Origin: Candidatus Collierbacteria bacterium GW2011_GWC2_44_18
Lineage (GTDB): Bacteria; Patescibacteriota; Microgenomatia; UBA1400; MFAQ01
Reading direction: 5' to 3'
Assembly: GCA_001000865.1 (NCBI GenBank)
Contig: LCIE01000002.1
Span: 32,992-96,991 of the forward strand
Length of the DNA: 64,000 bases
Position numbers and translations under genes: made by a program. The notes below the pieces were generated by a model. The model saw only the letters and a program-made list of their open reading frames with translations, was not told the DNA's origin and did no database searches. This document shows positions 7,988 to 58,043 of the stretch, in pieces. The stretch's first letter is position 1; each line of letters begins with the position of its first letter.

Positions 7988-8100
7988 TCGTCATTGCCTT
8001 TTGTAGGGGCGGACCCCCGCGTCCGCCCGCAAACCACCAATTGTCATTGCGAATCTCGGTACTCCGAGCCCTGCCTGCCGGCAGGCAGGTGTGGCAATCT
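7988..8100. repeat. composite repeat cluster: Family-A element, Family-B REP (8002-8030), second Family-A element with a CTGCCTGCCGGCAGGCAGG palindrome
   Basis: cgtcattgcc..gtaggggcggacccccgcgtccgcccgc..ttgtcattgcgaatctcggtactccgagccctgcctgccggcaggcaggtgtggcaatctc. Confidence 0.8.
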
Positions 8101-32462: not shown

Positions 32463-32491
32463 CCGTAGGGGCGGGCCCTCGCGCCCGCCCG
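32463..32491. repeat. Family-B REP-like palindrome
   Basis: ccgtaggggcgggccctcgcgcccgcccg. Confidence 0.75.
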
Positions 32492-36748: not shown

Positions 36749-36800
36749 GTCATGCCGGACCTGATAGGGCCGCTGGTCCCCGAAGGGGGAAATCCATCCC
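36749..36800. repeat. Family-A long variant (GTCATGCCGGACCTGATAGGGCCGCTGGTCCCCGAAGGGGGAAATCCATCC)
   Basis: Near-identical copy inside the CapA-fusion CDS at 52438-52493. Confidence 0.8.
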
Positions 36801-42359: not shown

Positions 42360-42839
42360 ATGGCTCAAAAACTATCAAAAAAATCAAAAATCGCCGTCAA
42401 GCCGGTTAAAACCATTCCAGTTAAAAAAGGTACCTTATCGATGCCCAAAGAATTTTTCTCTGCCATTGGTAGACGCAAAACCGCCATTGCTCGCGTTAGG
42501 ATTTGGCCTGGCAAACAGGAGCTAACGGTCAACGGCAAACCAATCTCCACCTATTTCAAAGGGGAAACCTTCAAAAAAATCTATCAAGCACCATTCATGG
42601 TTACCGAAACTCTGGGTCAATATACCGGTAGTATCAAAATCGCCGGATCCGGTTTAATGTCTCAAGCAGACGCTATCGTTCATGGTATTGCTCGCGCCTT
42701 GGTAAAAGTTAACTCTGATCAATTCAAACAGATTTTGAGAGACAAGGGTTTCATTACTCGAGACTCCCGTATGAAAGAGACCAGAAAAGCCGGACAGGGT
42801 GGTCGAGCCCGCGCCAAGAAACAAAGCCCAAAGCGTTAA
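42360..42839 (+). CDS. rpsI: 30S ribosomal protein S9
   Basis: C-terminal ...RKAGQGGRARAKKQSPKR motif. Confidence 0.92.
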   Translation: MAQKLSKKSKIAVKPVKTIPVKKGTLSMPKEFFSAIGRRKTAIARVRIWPGKQELTVNGKPISTYFKGETFKKIYQAPFMVTETLGQYTGSIKIAGSGLMSQADAIVHGIARALVKVNSDQFKQILRDKGFITRDSRMKETRKAGQGGRARAKKQSPKR

Positions 42840-42925: not shown

Positions 42926-43920
42926 ACAATAGACTTGTCGCAAAATAAGCAACATCACCTCCCCCTCCCCAGATATCAGGTTAACAAGTGTCTTTGGTAA
43001 TTGGTCGGGTAAAGTTGTAGAGGGCATATCTGTCGGCAAGAATATGGAAGTGTTTGAGTGCTCCAATGACATGTTCTACTCGTACTCTGATTGAGGATAT
43101 GGTTTGATTGGTTAGCTTGTCCATCTCAGGAAGTTCTTTCTTGTATGGTTTCTTGATTGGAAGAATCACCTTAGAGTGTGAACTTGATTCTTGTAGTCCT
43201 ACGTATCCTAAGTCAGCCAGACAAGTGGCTCCGGGCGGAGCCCGGAGAACTGTGCCATCATCCACGCACAACTGTTTGTCATGTCGTTTTCCCTCCACTG
43301 TTTGGGAGACAGCCAAAATTCTTTTGGTGTGTGGGTGGATGATGATTTGATTCTTGATCGTATGTTTCTTCTTTTTACCAGAGTAATAGAACTCTTGATT
43401 TTTCTTTGGTCTTTGTACTGCTCTCTCGGTGGCATCAATGATGAACTCAGAGAGATCAGGACAGATCTCGAGCATTCCCGCCATGGTACGGATCTTTCTT
43501 TTAGGTAGCCTAAGTTCATATCCTAGTGTTAACCAAAGCACTTCCTCCATAAATACCTTCCATCGATGGATAGTTTCCTTGTCTACCTCGAAGATTGTTT
43601 GAGCCAGGCGGAAAGTGGGATATGTTTTGTAGTAAAACAAGATGAAGAGTAATCTCTCTGAAGAAGTTCGGAGTACCGACCTTCTTCCTGCTCCCATTCC
43701 TCTGTCTCTGTCCCATCTCCACAGTTTGTGGTGTCGACTCTGTCGAAATCGAATATCAAAAAGTGGTAACAGTTTGTTAAACTTTTCCTGACTCATTCCA
43801 ATTACCGCTGGAAAAAGATCAGGATGTTTGAGAAGATAGAGTAGATTCATGGGCAGGAACTTACTAATATGGGGTCCTGCCCATAATCTTATCAGAGCTA
43901 ATTATGCGACAAGTCTAATA
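42926..43920 (-). mobile_element. IS5-family insertion sequence (~1.0 kb) with terminal inverted repeats
   Basis: Left end aatagacttgtcgcaaaat (42928-42942). Right end reverse complement attagacttgtcgcataat (43905-43917). A single DDE transposase ORF fills the interior. Confidence 0.7.
42981..43850 (-). CDS. IS5/IS4-superfamily DDE transposase (289 aa)
   Basis: N-terminal HTH region. KKKHTIKNQIII and DLGYVG motifs are typical of DDE_Tnp_1-type transposases. Confidence 0.75.
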   Translation of the reverse strand: MNLLYLLKHPDLFPAVIGMSQEKFNKLLPLFDIRFRQSRHHKLWRWDRDRGMGAGRRSVLRTSSERLLFILFYYKTYPTFRLAQTIFEVDKETIHRWKVFMEEVLWLTLGYELRLPKRKIRTMAGMLEICPDLSEFIIDATERAVQRPKKNQEFYYSGKKKKHTIKNQIIIHPHTKRILAVSQTVEGKRHDKQLCVDDGTVLRAPPGATCLADLGYVGLQESSSHSKVILPIKKPYKKELPEMDKLTNQTISSIRVRVEHVIGALKHFHILADRYALYNFTRPITKDTC

Positions 43921-45683: not shown

Positions 45684-46265
45684 ATGAAAATTTGTGGATT
45701 AGATGAATGCGGCAGAGGAGCTTTCGCTGGCCCTCTCGTGGCCGCCGCCGTTATTATTAATACCGATCTGGTTTCTTTCCCGTCTCTCCTTCCTGTTCCG
45801 CTCCGCGATAGTAAAAAACTAACTGAAACTCAACGAATCAAAATCGTTTCCGAGTTACCCAAACTTCCCGTCATTTACAAAATAGAAGAGGTATCAGTTT
45901 CCGAAATCAATGAGTATGGCATGGGTTGGGCCAACCAGCAGATTTTTGAAAGACTTATCTCCGGTATTAAATCCACTGTTTATATTGTTGACGGCAATCT
46001 CAAGTTTGCTAACCCTTCGGTAAGAACTCTTATCAAAGGAGATGACAAGTGTTATCAGGTAATGCTGGCGAGTGTTATTGCCAAGGTTTACCGTGATAAT
46101 CTCATGGCCAAACTTCACCAGGACTTTCCGGAATACGGCTGGGACAGAAACTCGGGCTATGGCACCGTCGAACATATCCAAGCCATCAAACAGTTTGGCC
46201 AAAACCTCCACCACCGATCCCAGTATATCGCCACTTTTGTTAGTAAACATTCGTCAGCCGGATAG
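45684..46265 (+). CDS. rnhB: ribonuclease HII
   Basis: MKICGLDECGRGAFAGPLVAAAVII...DSKKL motifs. Confidence 0.9.
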   Translation: MKICGLDECGRGAFAGPLVAAAVIINTDLVSFPSLLPVPLRDSKKLTETQRIKIVSELPKLPVIYKIEEVSVSEINEYGMGWANQQIFERLISGIKSTVYIVDGNLKFANPSVRTLIKGDDKCYQVMLASVIAKVYRDNLMAKLHQDFPEYGWDRNSGYGTVEHIQAIKQFGQNLHHRSQYIATFVSKHSSAG

Positions 46266-46271
46266 TTTTCA

Positions 46272-49200
46272 TTGACATCTCCTTACCCTGTAATTAAACT
46301 AAAATCATCGATGGGAAAAATAAAAACCTTCTTAGGTTCTTTGCGTCCTTGGCAGTTGGTCGGAATCTTGCTGGTTTCCTTAGGACTGCTCGCTTCCGTT
46401 ATTCTTGCTTCGCAATACCTTCAGCTCTCAGCCAAACTAAAGCTAGGCTCAGACGCCGGGCTGTTGTTGACGGCGGATCGACAAGACTCGTTAGGGACGT
46501 TTCAGGATTCAACTTTCACTCTCAAGTCGGATCAAGATCTTACCGTCGCCGGTCTCAAGAATAGTGTGACTTTCTTTCCCGAAATAGACTTCGACATTAG
46601 GGAAATCAGCCCTCGTCAATTTAGTATTTCCCCCAAGGCTCCTCTAAAGAACAACAGTCTGTATCGCGTCAAGGTAGTTTCCGACCAAAAAACTTTTTCC
46701 TGGGCATTCCAGACCAAAAACGATTTCCGGGTAGTCCAAACCCTACCTCGTGATCAAGCCACCTACGTACCCATAAATTCTGGTATCGAGATCACCTTTA
46801 GTCACGATAATTGGGATGACATAAGTTTGAAAGATGGAAATTTTGAAATTACCCCTTTTGCCGAAGGTCGTTTCGAACGTCACAAAAGAACTATTTCCTT
46901 TATTCCAGAGGGACTTGTTCCAAATACACTATATACGGTAAAAATCAAAAAAGGTCTTAAACTCAAAGGAACCAATGAAGTTCTCAAAGATGATTTTGTT
47001 TATCGTTTTGAAACCCAGTCTTCTTCCGGAGATAAGACTCAAATAAATTTTTCCAGAAGTTTTTATGAATTTTCTCCACCCGAAACTCCGGCTTTCGATA
47101 TCTACACTTCATCGACCGGCGTGGGCGAGGCCTCGGTAAAGGTTTATCAATACCCCAATGTTCAAGATTTTACTTCCGACTTTACTACCAAGCTGGCTAT
47201 TCCGGCGTGGGCGACCAATTCACTTCGCTTAAATCGTCGTCCGGTTTCGGGGCTAAACAAAGTTCTGGATTTTCCGGCATCAATTCAAAAACAATCATAC
47301 ACCAATTATTTCTTACTTCCTCAAACTTTACCCAAAGGTTTTTACCTGATTGAAGCCACGATCGATAATATCACCACCCAAGCTTTGGTTCAAATAACCG
47401 ACCTCTCCGCCTATCTCACCGTCAGCGGTACCAAGACACTCGTTTGGGTCAACGATATTGGTACTGGCCAGCCTGTTTCTGGTGCAAGTGTCAGTTTCGC
47501 CGGCAAAGGACAAGAAACCGGTCAGGATGGTGTCGCTTACTTTGATACTCCGACCGAAAAGATAACAGAAAATTCCAATCTTATTGGAGTTAGTCATGGC
47601 AGTAATGCTCTATATTTACCTGTTCAAAATGTTAGGTACTACTACGATGCTGATTATCAAAATTCCCGTCGCGTGGCCGATAAATACTGGAACTATTTTT
47701 ACACCGATCGTCCGGTCTACCTACCCACTGACATTCTCAAGTTCTGGGGTTTACTTAGGGATCGGGACAATCTAAATCAAAATCAAAAATTCACCTTAGA
47801 AGTTACTCGGTCAGATTACACCAGCTGGGACTTCCATCCGATGGTGCTTTTTACCAAAGATTTCGAAACCAGTGATCTGGGAACTTTTATTGGCGACATT
47901 CCTTTGGCGAGCTACAATCCGGGCTGGTATGGTATCTCCCTTAAGATCAATGGCACTATCGTCTCCAGTTCTTCGTTTTCGATTGAAACTTACACCAAGC
48001 CAGCCTACAAACTTACCCTCACTCCTTCCAAAAAAGCCGCTATTGTCGGTGAAATAATCTCTTTTTCCGGTGAAGCTACCTTCTTCGAAGGCTCCCCAGT
48101 CGTGGGGATGGATTTAAAGGTTACCGGGGCTCAAAATAGTAATTTCACCACTGATTCTCTCGGTCGATTTAATTTCAATTACCTGGTCTCGAAAAATTCC
48201 TACAACTATTTACCGGAGTATCGAAATTTTGTTGTCCTTCCCACCCTTCCCGAGGAGGGTATGATTCAAGTGAATTCCTCTATTGCCGTTTTTGATTCAT
48301 CACTAGTCTTGGGTTATTCAAAAACTGAGTCAAAAAATTCCACTGGAAAGGTTGAGATCGATCTTCGTCAGGTTGATACCGGAAAATTTACTCAGTCTTC
48401 AGACATACAAGACATTTTTGCTCCGGCTTCAAACCGGCTGGTTACTGGCACCTTAGTGGAAAATCAATGGAATCGACGGGAAGTTGGTACCTATTACGAT
48501 TTTATTAACAAGGTAACCTCTCCCAAATATGCATACGATCGAGTTCAAACCAAAATTGCCGACATCTCTTTAACCACCGACTCAAAAGGGAAGGCGGTCT
48601 ACGAATTTCCTGTTGGAGAAAACAAGTCATACGACATTCTCTTATATGCCACTGACGATCAAGGAAGAACTACCAGCCAAAACGTTTATCTTACCGGCTC
48701 GGTCAACAATGCCGAGTTGAATAACTATGTTTATTTAAAAACCGACAAGGAGGGTCAAAATTCCAGCCGATATGCTATTGGCGAGTCAGTAAACCTCACC
48801 CTTATGCGAGGAGAATTACCTCTGGAGTCCTCCGGAAACGATAAATTTCTTTATTTATTTTCTCAAAGGGGCCTTAATTCGTATCAGTTAGCCAGCGATG
48901 GGAAAATAAGTTTCAAATATCCCACAGCCTTTGTACCCAATGTCTTTGTTCGGGCGGTGAGATTTACCGGGAAAACTTATCAAGTATCGGAAAATCTTTA
49001 TCTATACTTTGATACCACCTCCAAAAAACTTTCCCTGGGGATTACTCAAGATAAACCCTCATACCTTCCGGGAGATACCGCCAAACTTTCCGTACTGGTA
49101 AAAGATCAAACCGGATCCGGCGTCTCTTCAGAGGTCAATCTCAGTCTTACAGATGAAGCATACAACGCTTTAAATTCCACTTTTGTGGATCCGTTATCTG

Positions 49201-51530
49201 GAATCTATCGTTCCTTGGGCGACGATATTATTGCTTCATACCAATCTCATCAATATCCTCTGGATAGTTCCGGGGCTGAAGGTGGTGGTTGTTTCTTGGC
49301 GGGTACACAGATATTGATGGAAGACGGAAAAACAAAAGAAATTCAGGATATAAAGGTGGGAGATATAGTCAAGTCATTTCTAAGTCCTCTGTCGAGGAAA
49401 ATAGCAACTGCCAAAGTTTCCAAAGTTTTCACGCATCAGGTAGTAGGTTATTTGGTAATTAACAATCACCTAAGAGTCACCGGAGAACACAATTTATATA
49501 TCAATGGTCGGTTCATGACCGCCTCTGAGGTAAAAGTTGGGGATTTCTATCTTGATACTCATGGGGAGTACCAAAAGATATTCTCCATCGAAAGTCGATC
49601 TGGAATAAATACGGTCTACAATTTCACGGTAGAAAAATTAAACACATACTTCGCCGAAGGATTTTATGTCCACAACGAGAAGGGTCGCGAATTATTCGTG
49701 GACAATGCTTTTTTCAGCAGTGTCCGTACCGGTAGTGATGGCCGTGCCAGCGTTGATGTTAAGCTTCCGGATAATCTTACCTCTTGGAAAATTACCTCCC
49801 AAGGAGTTACTGCCGATCTGAAAGCAGGTGTCGACTCTTCTCTTCTGGTTGTTAAACAACCCTTCTTCGTAGATGTAGTCATGAACACTGAGTATCTGGT
49901 TGGCGAACGACCGGAAGTTTCGGTTCGTGCCTATGGTGAAGGACTATCCACTGGGGACCAAGTAATCCTAAAAATTCAATCTGATACTTTAGGAATAGAT
50001 AAAAGTCTTAACATAAAAGCCTTTGAAAGTTCTAAAGTGGATCTTGGTGTCCTCAAAGAAGGCTCCCACAAAATTACCATTTCGGGTATTTCCGGTAGTC
50101 TTACGGATAAGTTAATCAGAAAAATGAATGTAGTCAAGTCTCGCCTCAAAGCAGTCAAATCGGTCAGTGTTTCTTTGGCAGAAGGTACCAAGCCGGAAGG
50201 TTCGCCAGATTCGTCAACGACCTTAATCTTTTCCGACCAAAGCCTCGGTCGTTATTTCCCACCCCTTTCAAACCTGGCTTACACTTGGGGGGATCGCTCA
50301 GATCAGCGTCTAGCCCGCCATCTTTCGCAGTCTATCATCAAGAAGCTTTTCGACGATTCTATCAGTCCGGAAACACTCGACCTCACCGCCTTTCAAACTC
50401 CGGATGGTGGTTATGCACTCTTTCCCTACTCTGGAGCAGACCTGGAGCTCTCTGCCTTCGTAGCGTCCTTGGCAAAAGAAAAGGTTGATCTCATTGGTTT
50501 GGGAAACTATTTTTACAAAGAATTTTCCCAATCAAAAGACCTCGACACTGCCTCCATGTCGCTTTTTGGACTGGCAAGTTTAGACGAACCGGTACTACTA
50601 TTAATAAACAATCTTTCGGGCGAAAAAGATCTCAGCCCCTTGTCCAGAATCTACTTGGCTTTGGCTCAAGCCAAGATCGGGGATACCGAAATGGCCCGCA
50701 TTTTCTACAAGACTCTCATGTCGGAGTTTTCCGAAAAACAAGATTCATTAATCTTGATGAAAGTCGGATCAGACAAAGATAGTTATCTCCAGGCCACTTC
50801 ACTTACTTCTGCTCTTTCCTCCTTGTTGGGTGAGCCGGAAGCTGACAGTCTGCTTTCTTACACCCTGGCTAATAGCGCGAAAGACATCTTACTAGTTGCT
50901 CCTCAGATGATGGCCATTTCCTATCAGATCGAAAATATTAAACCCCAACCGGTCTCTTTTTCATACACTCTAAATGGCAAAAAGATACCCAAAAAACTTG
51001 AAAAGGGTCAAGTTTTCAAGCTTGAGTTATCGTCCACTGATCTATCCGGAATAAGTTTTTCCGATCTTGTTGGCAATGTCGGTTTGTCTTCAACTTTCGC
51101 GGTTCCTCTGGATCCAAAAACTGCCCCCATAAGTTCGTCGGTTCAGTTAGGTCGGAGTTACTCTGTTCGTGGTGCTATCACCAACACTTTCTCCACCAGC
51201 GATCTTGTCAAAATTTCACTTCCAGTTGCCTATGCGGATATCTCTCAAGACGGTTGTTACCAAGTCTCGGATCTACTTCCTTCGGGGTTGAGACCGATCA
51301 CTTCGATTTATAGTTTCGGGCTGGATTCCACAAAGACTTGGTATCCATACGAGATAAATGGCCAAAAGGTTAGTTTCTGTGTAGGAAATGGAAGTAAAGA
51401 AAAAACCATCAACTACTATGCGAGGGTCGTCTCCGGTGGCGACTTCAAAGCCGAAAGTGCCTTGATTCAATCCTTAATTTCACCTTCAGTCTTCAACCTT
51501 TCTCCCTCCGGCTCGGTCATTATCAAATGA
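46272..51530 (+). CDS. alpha-2-macroglobulin-family surface protein (1752 aa), thioester-less, with a Hint/BIL domain in place of the bait region
   Basis: N-terminal signal-anchor helix and repeated MG-type beta-sandwich domains (e.g. LVQITDLSAYLTVSGTKTLVWVNDIGTGQPVSGASV). The post-bait A2M block FVDNAFFSSVRTGSDGRASVDVKLPDNLTSWKI...LVVKQPFFVDVVMNTEYLVGE aligns with human A2M [32 protein letters not shown]...[21 protein letters not shown] (recalled from memory). No CxEQ thioester at the expected position (LAYTWGDRSDQ instead). Confidence 0.7.
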   Translation: MTSPYPVIKLKSSMGKIKTFLGSLRPWQLVGILLVSLGLLASVILASQYLQLSAKLKLGSDAGLLLTADRQDSLGTFQDSTFTLKSDQDLTVAGLKNSVTFFPEIDFDIREISPRQFSISPKAPLKNNSLYRVKVVSDQKTFSWAFQTKNDFRVVQTLPRDQATYVPINSGIEITFSHDNWDDISLKDGNFEITPFAEGRFERHKRTISFIPEGLVPNTLYTVKIKKGLKLKGTNEVLKDDFVYRFETQSSSGDKTQINFSRSFYEFSPPETPAFDIYTSSTGVGEASVKVYQYPNVQDFTSDFTTKLAIPAWATNSLRLNRRPVSGLNKVLDFPASIQKQSYTNYFLLPQTLPKGFYLIEATIDNITTQALVQITDLSAYLTVSGTKTLVWVNDIGTGQPVSGASVSFAGKGQETGQDGVAYFDTPTEKITENSNLIGVSHGSNALYLPVQNVRYYYDADYQNSRRVADKYWNYFYTDRPVYLPTDILKFWGLLRDRDNLNQNQKFTLEVTRSDYTSWDFHPMVLFTKDFETSDLGTFIGDIPLASYNPGWYGISLKINGTIVSSSSFSIETYTKPAYKLTLTPSKKAAIVGEIISFSGEATFFEGSPVVGMDLKVTGAQNSNFTTDSLGRFNFNYLVSKNSYNYLPEYRNFVVLPTLPEEGMIQVNSSIAVFDSSLVLGYSKTESKNSTGKVEIDLRQVDTGKFTQSSDIQDIFAPASNRLVTGTLVENQWNRREVGTYYDFINKVTSPKYAYDRVQTKIADISLTTDSKGKAVYEFPVGENKSYDILLYATDDQGRTTSQNVYLTGSVNNAELNNYVYLKTDKEGQNSSRYAIGESVNLTLMRGELPLESSGNDKFLYLFSQRGLNSYQLASDGKISFKYPTAFVPNVFVRAVRFTGKTYQVSENLYLYFDTTSKKLSLGITQDKPSYLPGDTAKLSVLVKDQTGSGVSSEVNLSLTDEAYNALNSTFVDPLSGIYRSLGDDIIASYQSHQYPLDSSGAEGGGCFLAGTQILMEDGKTKEIQDIKVGDIVKSFLSPLSRKIATAKVSKVFTHQVVGYLVINNHLRVTGEHNLYINGRFMTASEVKVGDFYLDTHGEYQKIFSIESRSGINTVYNFTVEKLNTYFAEGFYVHNEKGRELFVDNAFFSSVRTGSDGRASVDVKLPDNLTSWKITSQGVTADLKAGVDSSLLVVKQPFFVDVVMNTEYLVGERPEVSVRAYGEGLSTGDQVILKIQSDTLGIDKSLNIKAFESSKVDLGVLKEGSHKITISGISGSLTDKLIRKMNVVKSRLKAVKSVSVSLAEGTKPEGSPDSSTTLIFSDQSLGRYFPPLSNLAYTWGDRSDQRLARHLSQSIIKKLFDDSISPETLDLTAFQTPDGGYALFPYSGADLELSAFVASLAKEKVDLIGLGNYFYKEFSQSKDLDTASMSLFGLASLDEPVLLLINNLSGEKDLSPLSRIYLALAQAKIGDTEMARIFYKTLMSEFSEKQDSLILMKVGSDKDSYLQATSLTSALSSLLGEPEADSLLSYTLANSAKDILLVAPQMMAISYQIENIKPQPVSFSYTLNGKKIPKKLEKGQVFKLELSSTDLSGISFSDLVGNVGLSSTFAVPLDPKTAPISSSVQLGRSYSVRGAITNTFSTSDLVKISLPVAYADISQDGCYQVSDLLPSGLRPITSIYSFGLDSTKTWYPYEINGQKVSFCVGNGSKEKTINYYARVVSGGDFKAESALIQSLISPSVFNLSPSGSVIIK
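49290..49676 (+). other. Hint (bacterial intein-like, BIL-type) domain embedded in the A2M-family protein
   Basis: Begins GGG-CFLAGTQILMEDGK (block A). Has the TxxH block B (RVTGEHNL). Ends NTVYNFTVEKLNTYFAEGFYVHN (blocks F/G). The residue after the terminal Asn is Glu, not Cys/Ser/Thr. About 129 aa with no homing endonuclease. Confidence 0.75.
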
Positions 51531-53341
51531 AACTCTGGCAGTTATTTATTGGTTTTCTACCGATTATCGTCATTGCGACCTGCCTGCCGGCAGGCAGGGT
51601 TTTACTCGAACCGAAGCAATCTCCGAGCTTGAACCCTACACCTATTCGTGGGGTTAACCAACCCTTTGACACCTCCTTCGCTTATGATAATCGCACTTTT
51701 CTACCTGCCGTCGCTCAAAATACTGGCGTTGGTAACGGAACCTCTCCTAGGGTGGTTGTTCTCCCTCATCACCTGACCGCTTCTACCCTGATTGCTCAAG
51801 GCTTGTCGCTTTTAAAAACACCTCCACCCAAAACTATTGTTCTTTTATCTCCCAATCATGCCAACACCGGACAGTGCGCTATAGTTTCCTCCAAAAATAA
51901 TTGGGATACCCCATTTGGTCAGGTCCTAGTCGATCAATATCTATTGAATGATTTTCTGGACACCAAAACCATCTGTTTGGATGACTCGGCTGTGGCTATA
52001 GAACATGGTCTTGCCGGATTGGTTCCCTTCATCAAATATTATCTCCCGAATACAAAAATTGTTCCTTTTGCCCTTAAAAATGACCTCGATCCAATATTGT
52101 TAAATAATTTTACTCAAAAATTAGTTTCACTTTCTACAAAAACCGTTATCTTAGGCTCAATAGACTTTTCCCATGGTCTGTCCAAAAGTGAATCGACCAA
52201 AAAAGACGCTGTCACCGAGAAGTTACTATTGACCTTTAACTATCCGGAACTTCTCAAACTTTCATCCGAGTATCTCGACTCTCCGGTTTCTTTGGTCGCC
52301 ATTCTCAAAATTCTAGACTCGGAAAAAACCAAACCGAACATTCTAGCCCACAGTGACTCATCGGTTTTCAATAACCAACCAATGAACGTCACTTCATATT
52401 TTTTGATCTCCGGCGGCAGTAGTTCATCATCGACCATTCGTCATCCCGGACTTGATAGGGCCGTTGGTCCCCGAAGGGGGAGATCCATCCCCTCTGGAAA
52501 TTCCTTCACTCTCCTCTTCGGCGGTGACGTCATGCTTGGTCGCTCCGTCAATACCAGAATGATAAAGTACCAAGATTTCTTATGGCCATTCCAAAAAATA
52601 TCAGCTCTTCTTTCTTCTGCGGACTTATCTATTATCAATCTCGAGTCGCCTTTCCGTTCTGGTTGCCGACCGACCGATGGTGGTATGGTTTTTTGCGCCG
52701 ATCCTCGATCAGTCGAAGGTTTGGTTACGGCCGGCATCGATGTTGTTAATATCGCCAATAATCACATTTTCAATCAAGGCCAGGAGGGCATAGATGAAAC
52801 CATCGCCATATTAAATAATAACAACATTGCTTTCGTAGGGGCGGACCCCCGCGTCCGCCCGACAAACGACCCCCGCGTCGATCCGCAAAAATCGACATTC
52901 ACTCTCAAAAATACCAAAATCACTTTCTTGGGCTTTACCGACATTGCCTCCGTTTCCCAAGAAATTGCGACCGCCACTCCAGACAATATTAGAGCTCAAA
53001 TATCTGCCGCAAAAAAAGATTCCGATTTGGTTATCGCTACTTTCCACTGGGGCAATGAATATAGTCATCGGTCACTTCATCAGGTGGAACTCGCTCATCT
53101 AGCCGTTGATTCTGGTGCCGATGTCGTCATCGGCCACCACCCGCACTGGGTCCAGGAAGTAGAAACCTATTTGGGTAAACCCATTTACTATTCTCTGGGA
53201 AATTTAGTTTTCGATCAAATGTGGTCAGAAGAAACCAGGACAGGTCTAGTAGTCAAGTTAAACTTCTCTGGCAGTACCCTAATCAGTCAAGAACAAATTC
53301 CTATAAAAATTTTCGACTATGGTCAGCCAGCTACTCTATAA
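51527..53341 (+). CDS. fusion protein: MEMO1/AmmeMemoRadiSam-B-like domain plus CapA/PgsA-type metallophosphatase domain (604 aa), carrying three in-frame repeat insertions
   Basis: MEMO-like motifs LPHHLTAS, SPNHANTG, EHGLAGLVPFIKYY, SIDFSHG. CapA-like motifs LLFGGDVMLGRSV, NLESPF, NIANNHIFNQGQEG, TFHWGNEY, VVIGHHPHWVQE. ATGA overlap with the A2M gene stop. Repeat copies at 51568-51598, 52438-52493 and 52834-52861 are read in-frame. Confidence 0.65.
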   Translation: MKLWQLFIGFLPIIVIATCLPAGRVLLEPKQSPSLNPTPIRGVNQPFDTSFAYDNRTFLPAVAQNTGVGNGTSPRVVVLPHHLTASTLIAQGLSLLKTPPPKTIVLLSPNHANTGQCAIVSSKNNWDTPFGQVLVDQYLLNDFLDTKTICLDDSAVAIEHGLAGLVPFIKYYLPNTKIVPFALKNDLDPILLNNFTQKLVSLSTKTVILGSIDFSHGLSKSESTKKDAVTEKLLLTFNYPELLKLSSEYLDSPVSLVAILKILDSEKTKPNILAHSDSSVFNNQPMNVTSYFLISGGSSSSSTIRHPGLDRAVGPRRGRSIPSGNSFTLLFGGDVMLGRSVNTRMIKYQDFLWPFQKISALLSSADLSIINLESPFRSGCRPTDGGMVFCADPRSVEGLVTAGIDVVNIANNHIFNQGQEGIDETIAILNNNNIAFVGADPRVRPTNDPRVDPQKSTFTLKNTKITFLGFTDIASVSQEIATATPDNIRAQISAAKKDSDLVIATFHWGNEYSHRSLHQVELAHLAVDSGADVVIGHHPHWVQEVETYLGKPIYYSLGNLVFDQMWSEETRTGLVVKLNFSGSTLISQEQIPIKIFDYGQPATL

Positions 53342-53496
53342 GACCTGACCTCTAAAGTACTCAACTGTCCTCTCCTACCTTCCAGAGAAGTAAAAACCTA
53401 GGGTACTTTGCCACTTATCGTTGTTCGTATCACTTGTAAAATAATTATTAATATCTATAATTAATTCTGGTATTTAAATCGGGAAAATTATCAATT

Positions 53497-54444
53497 ATGG
53501 CTCCCATGAAAAAACAAAAAACCATTGTCTCCGCACTATGGCTGTTAATTAGTCTAGTTGTCATTTTTAGTGTTGCCCTTCTTCTCCAAAAAAGAAATTT
53601 CAGCGATCAAAGCCGAGCATCAAGTGGTACAGTTCTGGTCGGTCAGCTTATTAGATCCACTAGCTCCTCCTTATGCAGTAAATGCGTCCAGCAGTGCCCC
53701 GGTTCGGATAATGTGCTTCATGATTGCAACCCCATGGCTTCTAATGGTATCTCCATTGATAGTGTTTGCAACCAGGCCGGGAAAGTTGAAACTTGTGGCG
53801 GTAAGACCTATTGTTGTCCCAAACCAAAAGCCAGATGGACCGCCAATCTCACCGAATGTCCTGGAGCTACACCGGCGGTTAAACCACTCTCTCCCTACAG
53901 ACTTCTCAAGAAAGGCGGTCTCTGCACGGCTTTAGTCATAGACAAAGATCTGGCGGAACCATTAGTTGGCCAGCAGGTGGTGGCGACCGGAACCTTGAAG
54001 GAGCCATATTTTTATGCTTCAAAACTTTCTAGTTACACCCCAACTCCAACAAGAACCCCTACTCCTACAAAGACCCCCACACCTACTTCTTCAGACAATC
54101 AGCCACCCAAAATCATCACCACTTCATTGCCTTCCGGTTATGTAAATAAATCATACACTGCAAGTGTGGATGCCTCTGATATCGACACCGGCGATGCTTT
54201 AACCATGACGATATCTGGTTTACCTTTTGGGTTGAATACCGGTCCTTGTGGAGTTCCTGTCGGTGGGGGCAAAATCACCTGTTACATCTCCGGAACTCCT
54301 ATCCAGTCTGGACTTTTCAATATAAAGGTCTATGTCAGTGATAATCGAGGCGGATCCAGTTCGAAATCACTACCCCTATCTATCGTTACTCAGTCCACAA
54401 AAGTTACTCCCACACCAATTGGACCGCCGGTGGTCGCTCGCTAA
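53497..54444 (+). CDS. secreted Cys-rich protein with Pro/Thr linker and a C-terminal Ig/cadherin-like (dystroglycan-type) domain
   Basis: Signal-anchor helix, 10+ Cys in the first 120 aa, TPTPTRTPTPTKTPTPT linker, then a beta-rich domain (ITTSLPSGYVNKSYTASVDASDIDTGDALTMTISGLPFGLN). Confidence 0.55.
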   Translation: MAPMKKQKTIVSALWLLISLVVIFSVALLLQKRNFSDQSRASSGTVLVGQLIRSTSSSLCSKCVQQCPGSDNVLHDCNPMASNGISIDSVCNQAGKVETCGGKTYCCPKPKARWTANLTECPGATPAVKPLSPYRLLKKGGLCTALVIDKDLAEPLVGQQVVATGTLKEPYFYASKLSSYTPTPTRTPTPTKTPTPTSSDNQPPKIITTSLPSGYVNKSYTASVDASDIDTGDALTMTISGLPFGLNTGPCGVPVGGGKITCYISGTPIQSGLFNIKVYVSDNRGGSSSKSLPLSIVTQSTKVTPTPIGPPVVAR

Positions 54445-54750: not shown

Positions 54751-55812
54751 ATGCCAAAGAAATCCAAAAAAGTTAAAGAAGAAAAGTCTGTTGCCAAGCC
54801 GGCAGACAACAACGCTCGTCTCACTGCTGTCAAAATTGCTATGCAGCAAATTACCAAACAGTTTGGTGAAGGAGCTATCATGCATATGGGTTCCGATCGT
54901 GTCGACGAAAAGATACCGGTAATCTCTACCGGCTCAATTAGTTTGGACTTAGCTCTGGGAGTGGGGGGTTTCCCCAAAGGCAGAATTATCGAGATCTATG
55001 GTCCTGAAGCTTCAGGTAAGACCACCTTAGCCCTCCATGTCATCGCCGAAGCTCAAAAAGCGGGTGGTATCGCCGCTTTTATTGACGCCGAGCACGCAGT
55101 CGATCCTAGCCGTGCCAAGTCTATAGGAGTTGATTTGGACAGCCTCCTATTGTCACAGCCGGACAATGGTGAACAGGCACTAGAGATTGCCGAAACTCTG
55201 ATACGTTCCGGTGGAGTGGATGTTGTTGTTATTGATTCTGTCGCAGCCCTGGTTCCCAAGTCCGAGATCGAGGGGGAAATGGGGGATTCTTCCATGGGTC
55301 TACAGGCCAGACTCATGAGCCAAGCCCTTAGAAAGATTACCGGAGCCATTTCCAAGAGCAAGTGCATCGTTATTTTTACCAATCAGCTCCGTGAAAAAAT
55401 CGGTGTCATGTTTGGTAACCCCGAGGTCACTACCGGCGGGAAGGCCCTCAAGTTTTATGCTTCGATCCGCATCGATATGCGCAAAATTGGCAATATTCAG
55501 GAAGGAGATGAGATAATCGGTTCCCGTCACCGTGCCAAAGTAGTGAAGAACAAAGTCGCTTCGCCTTTTAGAACTGCCGAATTCGATGTTCTTAACGTCG
55601 GAGGTATCAGTAAACTAGGCGACCTCATCGACACCGCCATCGCATATAACGTCCTGGAAAAAGCCGGTTCGTTCATTAAGTACGATGGTGAGACACTGGC
55701 CCAAGGACGGGAGTCAGCGAAGACTGCTTTGGCCGAGCGTCCTCAGGTAATCGAGAAGATTAAGCAACAAGTCATGGAAAAGGTCAATGCCGGAATCCAG
55801 CCAGAAAAGTGA
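54751..55812 (+). CDS. recA: recombinase RecA
   Basis: [13 protein letters not shown] Walker A and the rest of the RecA layout. 353 aa. Confidence 0.95.
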
Positions 55813-56266
55813 GATCAGAAGTAGTCTATTAAAATACGCCGCCAACATACTCAGTCGACGGCCGTATTTTAGGTTCAAATTACGAGAAAAACTGTTTCTT
55901 CGGGCAGAAAAACTGAATTTATCCAATTCGGACTCGACAATAAATTCAATTCTGGACGATCTGGCTAAGAGTGGCTATCTAAACGACCAATATCTCTCCG
56001 AAGCCTTTGTCAGACGCCAGTTGTCCAAGCATTATGGCCCTAGGATTATTTCCCTCAAGCTCAAATTCTTGGGATTATCGCGGGAAGCAGTTACTGAAGC
56101 TCTCTCCTCCAGTGCGTCCTTGGAAGCTGAAATAGCCTCCATCAGGCAGTATCTTCAAAAATTTCCCCTTCTTGACCACCGGAAACTGATCTCCAAGCTC
56201 TACCAACGAGGCTATTCCGACCGTGCCATTAAAAGTGCATTTGACGGGGGCTATTTAGAAGACTAA
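55787..56266 (+). CDS. recX: regulatory protein RecX
   Basis: Immediately after recA (26-nt overlap). Three-helix repeat pattern typical of RecX. Confidence 0.7.
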
Positions 56267-56410
56267 AATACAGATACTAATCATGCTAGTCACTCAAAAT
56301 TACGCAATGTTCGATCTCAATCATAATACCAAGATCTTCTTCAAAAAAGCCTGTTTACAGGCAAGTTGCTAAGCGGCTGATTTTGCGTGTTTGTTTGCCT
56401 TCCATAGATT

Positions 56411-56436
56411 AGGCCTGCCTGCCGGCAGGCAGGTTT
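56411..56436. repeat. CTGCCTGCCGGCAGGCAGG palindrome (Family-A core module)
   Basis: aggcctgcctgccggcaggcaggttt. The same palindrome occurs at 8071-8090 and 51581-51598. Confidence 0.7.
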
Positions 56437-56459
56437 ATTAATATATTTTTGTCTAAACC

Positions 56460-58043
56460 ATGTCTATACTCTCAATTTTCCGTTCAAACATTTTCAAGAA
56501 TCTTTCAGGCTCCGAAAAAAGCAAGTCAGTCTCTTCAGCTCCTGTAGGGGCGATTCATGAATCGCCCGCAAAGGCAGCACCGCCAACGGTCTCTGTCCCC
56601 GTCGTCTCCACTCCTACAGTCGATACGGCTGCTATTATCGCCGCCGCCCAAGCTACAGCTCAGTCTCAGGCCAGAGAAATAATTATCTCCGCCAAAGACG
56701 AGGCCTTCAAAATAAAAGACCAAGCCATCAAGGATGCTCGAATTCAGCTGGAGGAAATCGAGGTTAGAGCCAAAAACCTGGCTCAAAAGCAACAAAGTAC
56801 TGCCACCATTGAAGAACAATTAAAACGGGAGAAAACAAATCTGGATCTCCAGACAACTCAAATTGAAGAGCTGAAGGCAAAAATTGTTTCTCAAGCCGAT
56901 TCAATGGTTGAAAAGCTCGAAAAAATTGCCTCATTAACCACCGAACAAGCCAAGAAGGAGCTTATTGCACAAGTTGAGAAACGTTCTGCCGTTGAAGCAA
57001 CAAGAGCCATAAAAGAAGCCGAGGAAAAAGCCAAGATCGAGGCAGAGGATCTCGCCAGGGAAATACTTGTCGATGCCATGAAGGCCGGTGCCACAGACTA
57101 TGTCGCCGAGTATACGATCTCTACTGTTCCAATTCCTGATGAAGAAACCAAAGGTCGAATTATCGGTAAAGACGGTCGCAATATTCGGATTTTCGAAAAA
57201 GTATCAGGATGTGATGTCTCTATGGACGACGGTCCCGATGAAGTCAAGTTGAGTAGTTTTGATCCTGTCCGTCGAGAAATTGCCCGTCTCACTTTAATTC
57301 ATTTAATCAAAGACGGTCGTATTCACCCGGCTCGTATCGAAGAATACTTTGAGAGATCAAAGAGAGACGTCGAACAGATAATGTTCCTGGAAGGCCAGAA
57401 GCTTTGCCACGCTGTCGGTGTTTACAACATGAATCGAGAGATCATTACCATGCTTGGCCGTTTCAAATTCCGCACCTCCTATGGTCAAAACATGATCAGT
57501 CATACTTTAGAAGAGACAAGAATTGGAATCAAAATAGCCAATGAAATTGGTGCCAATGTAGATATCGTTAGAATGGGTTGTTTGCTTCACGATATCGGCA
57601 AGATAATTGAAGGAGAGGGCAATCATGTGGAGCTTGGTGTTCAATACCTTAAGAAGTTCAATATTCCTCAAACCATTCTTGATTGTGTCGCCCAGCATCA
57701 TGAGGATGAGGAATTTAGTTCTAATGAATCGGTCATTGTCTATATCGCCGACGCCATCTCCGGTTCCAGACCGGGAGCTCGCCATGAGAATACCGAAGAG
57801 TACGGTAAGCGGATTAAGCATTTGGAGGAAATCGCTCGAAAGCATCCGGAAGTTGACGACGCCTACGCCATCTCCGCCGGGAGAGAAATCAGGGTTATTG
57901 TAAATCCAAGTAAAGCAGGTGATGAACAGTTATCTGTTATTGCACAAGCCATTCGCGATGAAATCAGAGACACCATGACTTTCCCCGGAACTGTCAAGGT
58001 TAATTGTATTCGCGAAACGCGCGCCTCGGAAATCGCATCGTAA
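56460..58043 (+). CDS. rny: ribonuclease Y
   Basis: Coiled-coil region, KH domain (GRIIGKDGRNIR) and HD domain (HDIGK...HHED). Confidence 0.88.
   Translation: MSILSIFRSNIFKNLSGSEKSKSVSSAPVGAIHESPAKAAPPTVSVPVVSTPTVDTAAIIAAAQATAQSQAREIIISAKDEAFKIKDQAIKDARIQLEEIEVRAKNLAQKQQSTATIEEQLKREKTNLDLQTTQIEELKAKIVSQADSMVEKLEKIASLTTEQAKKELIAQVEKRSAVEATRAIKEAEEKAKIEAEDLAREILVDAMKAGATDYVAEYTISTVPIPDEETKGRIIGKDGRNIRIFEKVSGCDVSMDDGPDEVKLSSFDPVRREIARLTLIHLIKDGRIHPARIEEYFERSKRDVEQIMFLEGQKLCHAVGVYNMNREIITMLGRFKFRTSYGQNMISHTLEETRIGIKIANEIGANVDIVRMGCLLHDIGKIIEGEGNHVELGVQYLKKFNIPQTILDCVAQHHEDEEFSSNESVIVYIADAISGSRPGARHENTEEYGKRIKHLEEIARKHPEVDDAYAISAGREIRVIVNPSKAGDEQLSVIAQAIRDEIRDTMTFPGTVKVNCIRETRASEIAS

Follow-up and report, generated by a model that had tools for sequence, protein, structure and literature searches.

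What does a macroglobulin do in a bacterium when an autoprocessing domain sits in its middle and the gene that follows encodes a fused MEMO-CapA protein? This question is raised by a 64,000-nt stretch of contig LCIE01000002.1 from Candidatus Collierbacteria bacterium GW2011_GWC2_44_18, hereafter called the window, to which all coordinates are relative. Between 45684 and 53341, three genes lie on the same strand, namely rnhB, a gene for an alpha-2-macroglobulin (A2M) family protein with a Hint domain, and a gene for a protein that joins a MEMO domain to a CapA domain (Table 1). We think it probable, with some reserve, that 46311-53341 is a two-gene, translationally coupled envelope module, in which a thioester-less A2M that is processed by a domain of the bacterial intein-like (BIL) type goes together with a MEMO-CapA partner. 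The data show the make-up of the two genes, the conservation of their order, the predicted topology and intact catalytic motifs, with metal-site residues kept in both enzyme domains; what the module does is inferred from sequence, and this applies to protease trapping, to a complex between the two proteins, to whatever MEMO-CapA acts on and to the way in which Hint processing ends. In the open-access literature, we found no description of an A2M-Hint protein, of an A2M-MEMO cassette or of an A2M-type anti-sigma factor.

The macroglobulin and its genomic partner

Judged by its domain content, the 1739-residue protein is a member of the A2M superfamily, as its macroglobulin (MG) chain, bait-region domain and A2M domain all score above the Pfam cutoffs. 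The Pfam scan returned Big_5, MG2, A2M_BRD and A2M, together with a PT-HINT match at residues 1009-1122. Profile comparison extends the likeness along the chain, with family profile positions 763-980 matching residues 392-611 of the C5 beta chain (its MG4-MG6 part), positions 1454-1746 matching residues 1300-1607 of E. coli YfhM (2.7e-13), and query residues 1121-1199 aligning with residues 727-806 of the human A2M chain. In addition, Foldseek matched a modelled segment of the protein to C3, CD109, A2ML1 and ECAM at approximately 1e-13. A thioester-bearing A2M was rejected, given that the CxEQ motif was found neither in the window protein nor in any of the 120 closest A2M homologue clusters; CxEQ strings, not necessarily at the thioester site, do occur in two relatives (L010 and L028). 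The missing motif does not exclude the protein from the superfamily, because thioester-less members are known. At the bait site, a flexible loop of low model confidence is in place, but where a variable bait would be expected it holds Hint and a conserved AE.GG motif, the latter kept in relatives with and without Hint. PADLOC gave no match to a defence system for the A2M, for the fusion or for two neighbouring open reading frames (ORFs), and membership in such a system was hence rejected.

By sequence, the protein falls into a thioester-less A2M class that is distinct from both the YfhM/PBP1c and the Mag types. YfhM (ECAM), which accompanies penicillin-binding protein 1c (PBP1c) in E. coli and Salmonella, is likewise a large multi-MG A2M that is anchored in the cytoplasmic membrane and encoded beside one enzyme gene, and its C-terminal region is detectably homologous to that of the window A2M. 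However, YfhM is a lipoprotein that has a CxEQ thioester and no Hint, and its partner is a penicillin-binding protein, whereas the window A2M lacks the thioester, contains Hint and is partnered by MEMO-CapA. Its anchor is a transmembrane helix, preceded by about 15 cytoplasmic residues, and has no lipobox, because the segment holds no Cys. Among the Pfam-scanned flanking ORFs (rnhB, MEMO-CapA, unknown ORFs and recA), no gene for PBP1c (pbpC) was found. With the lipoprotein anchor, the thioester and pbpC all absent, assignment to the YfhM/ECAM type was rejected. Pseudomonas MagD and E. coli YfaS come closer in one respect, as they are also thioester-less A2Ms that work with membrane-bound partners. 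The mag operon, however, consists of six genes of other families, and no mag-type genes were seen here, where the module comprises two or three genes (MEMO, CapA and sometimes an extracytoplasmic function (ECF) sigma factor gene). With MEMO and CapA as operon partners, the MagD/YfaS type was set aside as well.

The 604-aa protein encoded next had been read in an earlier note on this DNA, made from the letters alone, as a MEMO-like domain fused to a CapA-type domain, and this assignment is borne out by Pfam (Memo at 2.7e-21, PGA_cap at 3e-63) and by structure prediction. An AlphaFold model built on 24 homologues, with a mean predicted local distance difference test (pLDDT) value of 85.8, consists of an N-terminal helix and two globular domains separated by a disordered linker, with the CapA fold running on to residue 604. 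Its best solved neighbours in Foldseek are MslH (3.7e-19) and MEMO1 (2.6e-12, TM 0.70), and MslH is also the best PDB match of the CapA domain by profile (1.8e-25). The MEMO1 metal ligands H49, H81, D189 and H192 align with H81, H111, D213 and H216 of the fusion, where they are invariant or nearly so; a fifth MEMO1 residue, C244, is not aligned. In the CapA domain, six of the eight key residues of MslH (D11, E44, N87, H88, H259 and H295; PMC10406935) are retained. The NCBIfam model NF038314 for MslH gives 78.7 bits against a cutoff of 700, and the protein is therefore no MslH equivalog. MslH is a lasso-peptide epimerase that acts on the C-terminal residue of its peptide (PMC10406935), and the poly-gamma-glutamate of B. 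subtilis has a D/L ratio of 5/95 without pgsA and of 75/25 with it (PMC6029982). Both of the characterised relatives of CapA thus have to do with D-residues in substrates that are peptides or resemble them, and a peptide-directed activity of MEMO-CapA outside the membrane is, by analogy, a reasonable expectation.

The location of the protein sets it apart from its better-known relatives. MEMO1 and the AmmeMemoRadiSam protein B share the fold and the four metal-site residues with the window MEMO domain, and TIGR04336 scores above its cutoff; yet the known MEMO members are cytoplasmic and, in prokaryotes, go with AMMECR1 and radical SAM proteins, whereas the one in the window appears to be anchored outside, has an A2M as its partner and is joined to CapA in one protein. 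No AMMECR1 or radical SAM gene was found among the Pfam-scanned flanking ORFs of the window or among the called genes of three annotated relatives, and with the membrane anchor added to this, membership in the AmmeMemoRadiSam system was rejected. The CapA half shares the PGA_cap family, an N-terminal anchor and an external catalytic domain with PgsA. It differs from PgsA and MslH in being fused to MEMO and in that no pgsB, pgsC or lasso-peptide genes were seen nearby; a ligase-type hit, as expected of pgsB, was absent from the Pfam-scanned flanking ORFs of the window and from the called genes of L158, L159 and L160. A hydrophobic N-terminus is found in 52 of the 53 A2M-linked MEMO proteins, several of which, among those read, have lipobox-like sequences. 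With N-terminal anchors on all of them, the A2M, MEMO and CapA components are predicted to face the outside of the membrane, in line with the extracytoplasmic location that the earlier note had proposed to check.

The pairing is not peculiar to this genome, the point on which the earlier note had made its proposal depend: a co-occurrence survey found it conserved, also outside the candidate phyla. The A2M survey covered 77 metagenomic loci, of which 66 extend for 700 nt or more downstream, and at 53 of these 66 a MEMO gene lies directly 3' of A2M, with a gap of -56 to +159 nt, mostly -4 to +6 (one exception has 987 nt). In the window, the A2M stop overlaps the next start as ATGA, just as the earlier note had read it, and this 4-nt overlap is repeated in many relatives, including a Tepidanaerobacter (Bacillota) genome and a Dehalococcoidia genome, both of which have an overlapping A2M-Memo pair. 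The A2M-MEMO pairing thus recurs in three bacterial phyla, Patescibacteria, Bacillota and Chloroflexota. That MEMO+CapA takes the place of PBP1c as the partner, as had been claimed, needs a correction: PBP1c is indeed missing from the scanned flanks, but the conserved partner is MEMO, which is fused to CapA at 14 of the 53 A2M-MEMO loci. Six more have CapA as a gene of its own no further than about 1 kb away, in varied orientations, and in a rough neighbour-joining tree of the MEMO domain the fused forms are scattered among the unfused, at five or more separate positions. A2M-MEMO is thus the conserved core, with CapA as a recurrent third component that has repeatedly been fused or separated.

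A second survey started from the fusion, with one genome per species, and yielded 23 loci with MEMO-CapA. Memo and PGA_cap occur together in 51 of the 120 listed fusion homologue clusters, and the named clusters are Patescibacteria. In L001, L002, L007 (Kerfeldbacteria), L011 and L063, the fusion is immediately preceded by the A2M gene, and three of these (L007, L011 and L063) keep the order at only about 30% identity; unfused versions are found in L010 and L028, and a patescibacterial A2M without Hint (L160) also has the fusion downstream. It is highly improbable that such a gene order is fortuitous and that A2M and MEMO-CapA are functionally unlinked. Patescibacterial genomes are compact and contain many overlapping genes on the same strand, and rnhB is itself an incidental neighbour, but the adjacency holds down to about 30% identity and in three phyla, with CapA in varied arrangements and repeatedly fused.

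A more serious objection is that the two proteins may share a compartment and not a task. By analogy with yfhM and pbpC, which Budd and colleagues are said to have described in 2004 as a pair in proteobacteria, MEMO-CapA might, in line with the remodelling idea of the earlier note, independently build or remodel a surface polymer or a wall peptide, while the A2M would only protect the compartment from proteases; the two would be co-expressed and would not act on each other. CapA/PgsA is part of the poly-gamma-glutamate machinery and affects its D/L content (PMC6029982), and stand-alone CapA is very common in Patescibacteria, with more than 589 related stretches, most of them without A2M. MEMO-CapA fusions with neighbours other than A2M would fit the same account. 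No pgsB/pgsC-like genes, peptidoglycan synthase or other cell-wall synthesis genes, or polymer-export genes were seen beside the module in the window or at the loci examined, although no search was aimed at them, and the 4-nt overlap of MEMO onto A2M across phyla is more typical of the subunits of one complex. For polymer or peptidoglycan remodelling as such, the data give neither support nor refutation. We regard an independent role of MEMO-CapA as doubtful, and continue to favour a joint module.

At fusion loci without A2M, the neighbours are of two recurrent kinds, a conserved ORF of about 580 aa with no known function (L016, L026, L034, L041, L043, L045, L053 and L062) and a DUF3160 protein of about 870 aa (L019, L035, L051, L054 and L061). 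An N-terminal hydrophobic segment is present in both copies of the former that were read. Neither is an A2M in disguise, as they gave no match to the family hidden Markov model even at E = 10. The MEMO-CapA enzyme may thus serve different large secreted partners.

A Hint domain at the position of the bait loop

The most unusual part of the A2M is its Hint domain, which the earlier note had mentioned only in its title and which is indeed present, at the position of the bait loop. Its boundaries were set by motif and are wider than the Pfam span. The blocks expected of an intein are there, with Cys1 in block A (GGG/CFLAGT), TxxH in block B (VTGEH) and His-Asn at the C-terminus in block G, followed by Glu at the +1 position. 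Hint is found in 59 of the 120 A2M homologues, and all named carriers are Patescibacteria (candidate phyla). All 59 have Cys1 and end in His-Asn, and C1, T64, H67, H128 and N129 are 100% conserved among the 58 sequences compared. The +1 residue is D in 24, E in 20, Q in 10, N in 2 and I, A and S in one each, so that one of the first four occurs in 56 of the 59 and a C/S/T nucleophile in a single one. A canonical intein of classes 1-3, which has Cys, Ser or Thr at +1, was therefore rejected, and the domain is better described as BIL-like, with canonical splicing excluded by the Asp, Glu or Gln at this position. The best PDB profile matches are the BIL domains 6Y75/6TMM (7e-17) and 2LWY (1e-14), with canonical mini-inteins far behind at 1e-6. 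No toxin domain after Hint was found in the Pfam scan of the A2M protein.

The insertion is precise. Carriers read ...GAE-GGG, then Hint, then [DEQ]KG-R..F.D, and Hint-less relatives keep ...AE[RKG]GG-[DE]GG.R..F.D at the same site, which lies between A2M_BRD and the A2M domain. The segment preceding Hint matches the end of the C5 beta chain, and the residue following it aligns to residue 727 of the human A2M chain, which we take from the UniProt annotation to be the end of the bait region. In the model, Hint is compact and confident and is held between two loops with a pLDDT of about 30. Its position is topologically equivalent to the beta-alpha site of C3, C4 and C5 and to the bait region of human A2M. 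Those sites are cut by external proteases (furin or attackers), whereas the window A2M contains an autoprocessing domain of its own, in a loop whose motif is conserved, unlike the variable bait of human A2M.

As to its type, the domain has the features of an A-type BIL or PT-HINT domain: a C-terminal His-Asn, no +1 nucleophile, no endonuclease and similarity to BIL domains. With members such as that of Clostridium thermocellum (2LWY, which we take to be the structure described by Aranko and colleagues in 2013), it shares the size of 129 aa, the motifs and a secreted host protein. BIL domains sit in hypervariable regions of non-conserved proteins (PMC7765530) or upstream of toxins, whereas the window Hint lies in one fixed, conserved loop, is apparently inherited vertically and behaves like an intein. 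It is best classed, from its motifs and its site, as a domain with BIL-type chemistry and intein-like placement, at one fixed site of a conserved protein.

The closest structures, 6Y75 and 6TMM, are those of the Tetrahymena BUBL BIL, with which the window Hint shares the conserved Hint blocks; in the deposited BUBL chains, Ala stands in for Cys1 and the C-terminal pair is His-Ala. BUBL is eukaryotic and its BIL flanks ubiquitin-like domains, whereas the window Hint is part of a bacterial A2M. The BUBL BIL is thought to transfer its upstream domain to target amines. We speculate that, in this A2M class without CxEQ, Hint could supply the reactive group, by an N-S acyl shift that gives a backbone thioester at Gly993 within the bait-equivalent loop; in place of splicing, an external amine (of a protease, of the cell's own wall or of a host surface) would resolve it, resulting in covalent capture or attachment; MEMO-CapA would then prepare or edit the loop, and the tail found in relatives would report to the ECF sigma factor. 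We consider this quite unlikely.

A simpler possibility is that Hint is a neutral, selfish, intein-like passenger that excises fully and religates the A2M, which would be compatible with either view of MEMO-CapA. The mature protein would then be the same as in Hint-less relatives, and Hint would lack a function of its own. Such a passenger would leave a precise insertion in a conserved motif and flanks that read like the loop of Hint-less relatives, as is the case here, and the splicing-type motifs Cys1, TxxH and HN are all invariant. Moreover, two A2M relatives at 50-52% identity, P0140 and P0142 (L160), lack Hint exactly and have a poly-Gly junction (GAEGGG-GGGGG-SLFRD) in its place; they are closer to the window A2M than several Hint-containing homologues, so that Hint-less members are nested among carriers. 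This pattern points to a clean loss of Hint, or to a gain in sister lineages. Dassa in 2004 and Aranko in 2013 are also said to have reported that BIL domains can ligate their flanks without a side-chain nucleophile at +1.

Other features are harder to reconcile with a passenger. It shows no homing endonuclease and no sign of mobility, and a +1 nucleophile, though efficient for splicing, is avoided in 58 of 59 sequences. An extracytoplasmic location is unusual for inteins, and A-type BIL domains, according to a review, cleave at their C-terminus and do not ligate (PMC7765530). Between homologues, the identity of Hint rises and falls with that of the 400 residues that flank it (Pearson r = 0.81), and the mean identity is 48% for Hint and 38.5% for the flanks. 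The divergence of Hint thus follows that of its host, and with Hint the more conserved of the two, these values indicate vertical inheritance under selection, as far as sequence comparison can tell. We regard the passenger as a possibility to be taken seriously, though not as the expected outcome, and retain a vertically inherited, autoprocessing Hint domain as the preferred reading.

Gene start, sigma linkage and surroundings

The earlier note had placed rnhB 7 nt before the A2M gene and had taken the two to be translationally coupled, with rnhB lying outside the interval 46272-53341 that it described. This part has to be given up. Position 46272 is merely the first in-frame TTG of the mechanical A2M ORF and belongs to the -35 hexamer (TTGACA) of a promoter-like site. 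An N-terminus of the form MEK[IVLA]K or MGKIK, which corresponds to ATG 46311, is found in 9 of the 14 close homologues printed; because homologues start at that position, we take ATG 46311 as the A2M start and reject TTG 46272 along with the coupling to rnhB. The two genes are thus 45 nt and not 7 nt apart, the promoter-like site lies between them, and there is no evidence of translational coupling. This site (46272-46300), a consensus match only, ends 10 nt 5' of the A2M ATG, so that a very short leader or a leaderless transcript would result if it is used. RNase HII upstream of A2M is confined to Collierbacteria-like loci (9 hits at the 77 metagenomic loci), and in a relative whose A2M is 50% identical (L160), rpsI (159 aa) lies directly upstream and rnhB is not there. 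Thus, rnhB is an upstream bystander that is unrelated to the module, and it was rejected as a member.

Table 1. Coordinates of features in and around the A2M/MEMO-CapA locus, in window positions.
Feature	Position	Strand	Basis
rnhB (RNase HII, 193 aa)	45684..46265	+	Pfam RNase_HII 3e-32; NCBIfam NF000595 174.8 bits, cutoff 167
Promoter-like site TTGACA-17-TAAACT in the rnhB-A2M spacer	46272..46300	+	Consensus scan, 10/12 matches
A2M-family gene, 1739 aa, thioester-less, N-terminal transmembrane anchor	46311..51530	+	Pfam, homologue N-termini
N-terminal transmembrane anchor of A2M, residues ~16-38, WQLVGILLVSLGLLASVILAS	46356..46424	+	Sequence reading
A2M_BRD (bait-region domain), residues 818-952	48762..49166	+	Pfam PF07703 4.4e-07, 30.7 bits, cutoff 22.7
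Flexible bait-equivalent loop ...SHQYPLDSSGAEGGG, residues 972-993, just before Hint	49224..49289	+	pLDDT ~30 in model
Hint/BIL-type autoprocessing domain, 129 aa, residues 994-1122	49290..49676	+	PT-HINT 37 bits, cutoff 27.7
A2M domain PF00207, residues 1133-1205, directly after Hint	49707..49925	+	Pfam 7.4e-11
C-terminal region like the thioester domain (TED) end/MG10 of E. coli YfhM, boundaries approximate	50628..51527	+	Profile match
ATGA stop/start overlap, A2M to MEMO-CapA	51527..51530	+	A2M TGA 51528-51530, ATG 51527-51529
MEMO-CapA fusion gene, 604 aa	51527..53341	+	Pfam Memo + PGA_cap
N-terminal membrane anchor helix of the fusion, residues 2-26	51530..51604	+	Predicted helix
20-bp perfect palindrome CCTGCCTGCCGGCAGGCAGG in the anchor-coding segment, in frame	51579..51598	+	Repeat search
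MEMO domain, residues 67-291	51725..52399	+	Pfam PF01875 2.7e-21, 76 bits, cutoff 27; TIGR04336 90.5 bits
Disordered inter-domain linker, residues 301-323	52427..52495	+	pLDDT ~30
Linker repeat in the MEMO-CapA gene	52440-52460		Repeat match
CapA/PGA_cap metallophosphoesterase-fold domain, residues 328-564	52508..53218	+	Pfam PF09587 3.1e-63, 214 bits, cutoff 27
Palindromic repeat GGGCGGACCCCCGCGTCCGCCC, in frame, encoding GADPRVRP in a CapA loop	52839..52860	+	Repeat search

Many relatives have a different gene upstream. In 27 of the 64 related loci, the gene immediately 5' of A2M encodes an ECF sigma factor (Sigma70_r2 and r4; TIGR02937 at 103 bits, cutoff 42.9; about 188 aa), among them L099, L100, L104, L107, L111, L127, L129, L137, L140, L151 and L152. 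The transmembrane helix of the A2M starts at a median residue of 74 where the sigma gene is present versus residue 26 or earlier where it is not, and the sigma-linked A2Ms are longer at the N-terminus by some 40-120 cytoplasmic residues, which is what one would expect of an anti-sigma factor. A sigma gene upstream and a long cytoplasmic tail are, by analogy, the usual sigma/anti-sigma layout. The A2M ectodomain might thus sense proteolytic attack, and the protein might serve the neighbouring ECF sigma factor as its anti-sigma factor, with a modulating role for MEMO, in which case the lineage of the window would have lost both the sigma gene and the tail. The upstream position of the sigma gene and the later start of the helix both agree with such signalling, but a Pfam search of the long tails of the relatives gave no known anti-sigma domain. 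For the copy in the window, signalling offers no explanation, because no ECF sigma gene was found in the window by tblastn and the tail has about 15 residues; its place upstream is taken by rnhB. We think it unlikely that signalling underlies the module, and return to an envelope module of A2M and MEMO-CapA.

Three short GC-rich palindromic repeats lie in frame inside the MEMO-CapA gene, in the parts that encode the anchor, the linker and a CapA loop. The first, CCTGCCTGCCGGCAGGCAGG, has exact copies at 8070-8089 and 56414-56433, where none would be expected by chance, and its insertion is absent from homologues. The linker is partly encoded by the second. A further recurrence of these repeats lies at 36749-36769. 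The third, GGGCGGACCCCCGCGTCCGCCC, recurs exactly at 8007-8028 and has copies at 789-810 and 32469-32490; the loop that it encodes has a lower pLDDT in the model, and the GADPRVRP peptide is found at the same place in several homologues. The copies elsewhere in the window, none of which chance would predict, apparently lie between long ORFs. These repeats look like repetitive extragenic palindromic (REP) or miniature inverted-repeat transposable element (MITE)-like elements that are tolerated in loop-coding sequence.

Further upstream, about 2.5 kb from A2M, a DDE transposase gene (DDE_Tnp_4/DDE_Tnp_1 with a helix-turn-helix) occupies 42981-43850 on the minus strand. The transposase and a 303-aa ORF, which has only a weak, sub-threshold match to APH kinases, separate a 159-aa ORF (42360-42839) from rnhB and A2M. 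On the other side, the module is followed, after a 155-nt spacer with a promoter-like site at 53434-53461, by a 315-aa ORF (53497-54444) that has a hydrophobic N-terminus and no Pfam or PADLOC match, and that did not turn up here in those relatives for which gene maps were viewed. The genes for recA, recX and RNase Y come next (54751-58043). ORFs of 353 and 159 aa, matched by size, recur downstream of the module in three Collierbacteria-like relatives (L002, L081 and L088).

A proposed envelope module and its meaning

The module that we favour may be pictured as follows. The A2M would be displayed on the outer face of the membrane, anchored by its N-terminal transmembrane helix. MEMO would be the ancestral and obligate partner of this thioester-less class, to which CapA was presumably fused in the lineage of the window. 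A2M and MEMO-CapA would be made in fixed proportion and would form a complex at the membrane surface, where the A2M might serve as a protease trap or shield and MEMO-CapA as a dedicated accessory enzyme that acts on the A2M or on an adjacent peptide substrate. After export, Hint would most likely form a thioester between Gly993 and Cys994 and cleave at Asn1122. Thereafter, the flanks might be joined again with no side-chain nucleophile taking part, which has been reported for BIL domains, or the A2M might be left as two chains, as in C3, C4 and C5.

Several observations weigh against this picture. Protease trapping is an assumption taken over from the superfamily, because the thioester is lacking and the bait loop is conserved, not hypervariable. 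In the CapA domain, D91 and H261 of MslH are replaced by Asn416 and Gly509, and epimerase chemistry is therefore not assured. MEMO-CapA is not exclusively an A2M accessory, because fusions occur without A2M, at 16 of the 23 fusion loci in the genome collection, and 13 of the 66 A2M loci have no detectable MEMO downstream. The loci include near-identical metagenomic contigs, and their counts hence overstate the number of independent observations. Finally, Hint is dispensable, because close relatives (P0140 and P0142) do without it.

Two genomic settings are known for bacterial macroglobulins, one beside PBP1c and one within the mag operon, and the A2Ms described here point to a third class, which goes with a secreted MEMO protein as its fixed partner. 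MEMO and CapA/PgsA are both widespread and their biochemical roles are debated, so that an extracytoplasmic partnership with A2M provides a hypothesis for their substrate or partner. The sigma linkage in relatives suggests, in addition, a possible signalling route for the sensing of proteases. A macroglobulin with Hint in its bait loop unexpectedly joins two well-studied protein machines. It would mean either that protein splicing reaches exported proteins of the envelope or that a macroglobulin can cleave and activate itself, akin to two-chain complement.

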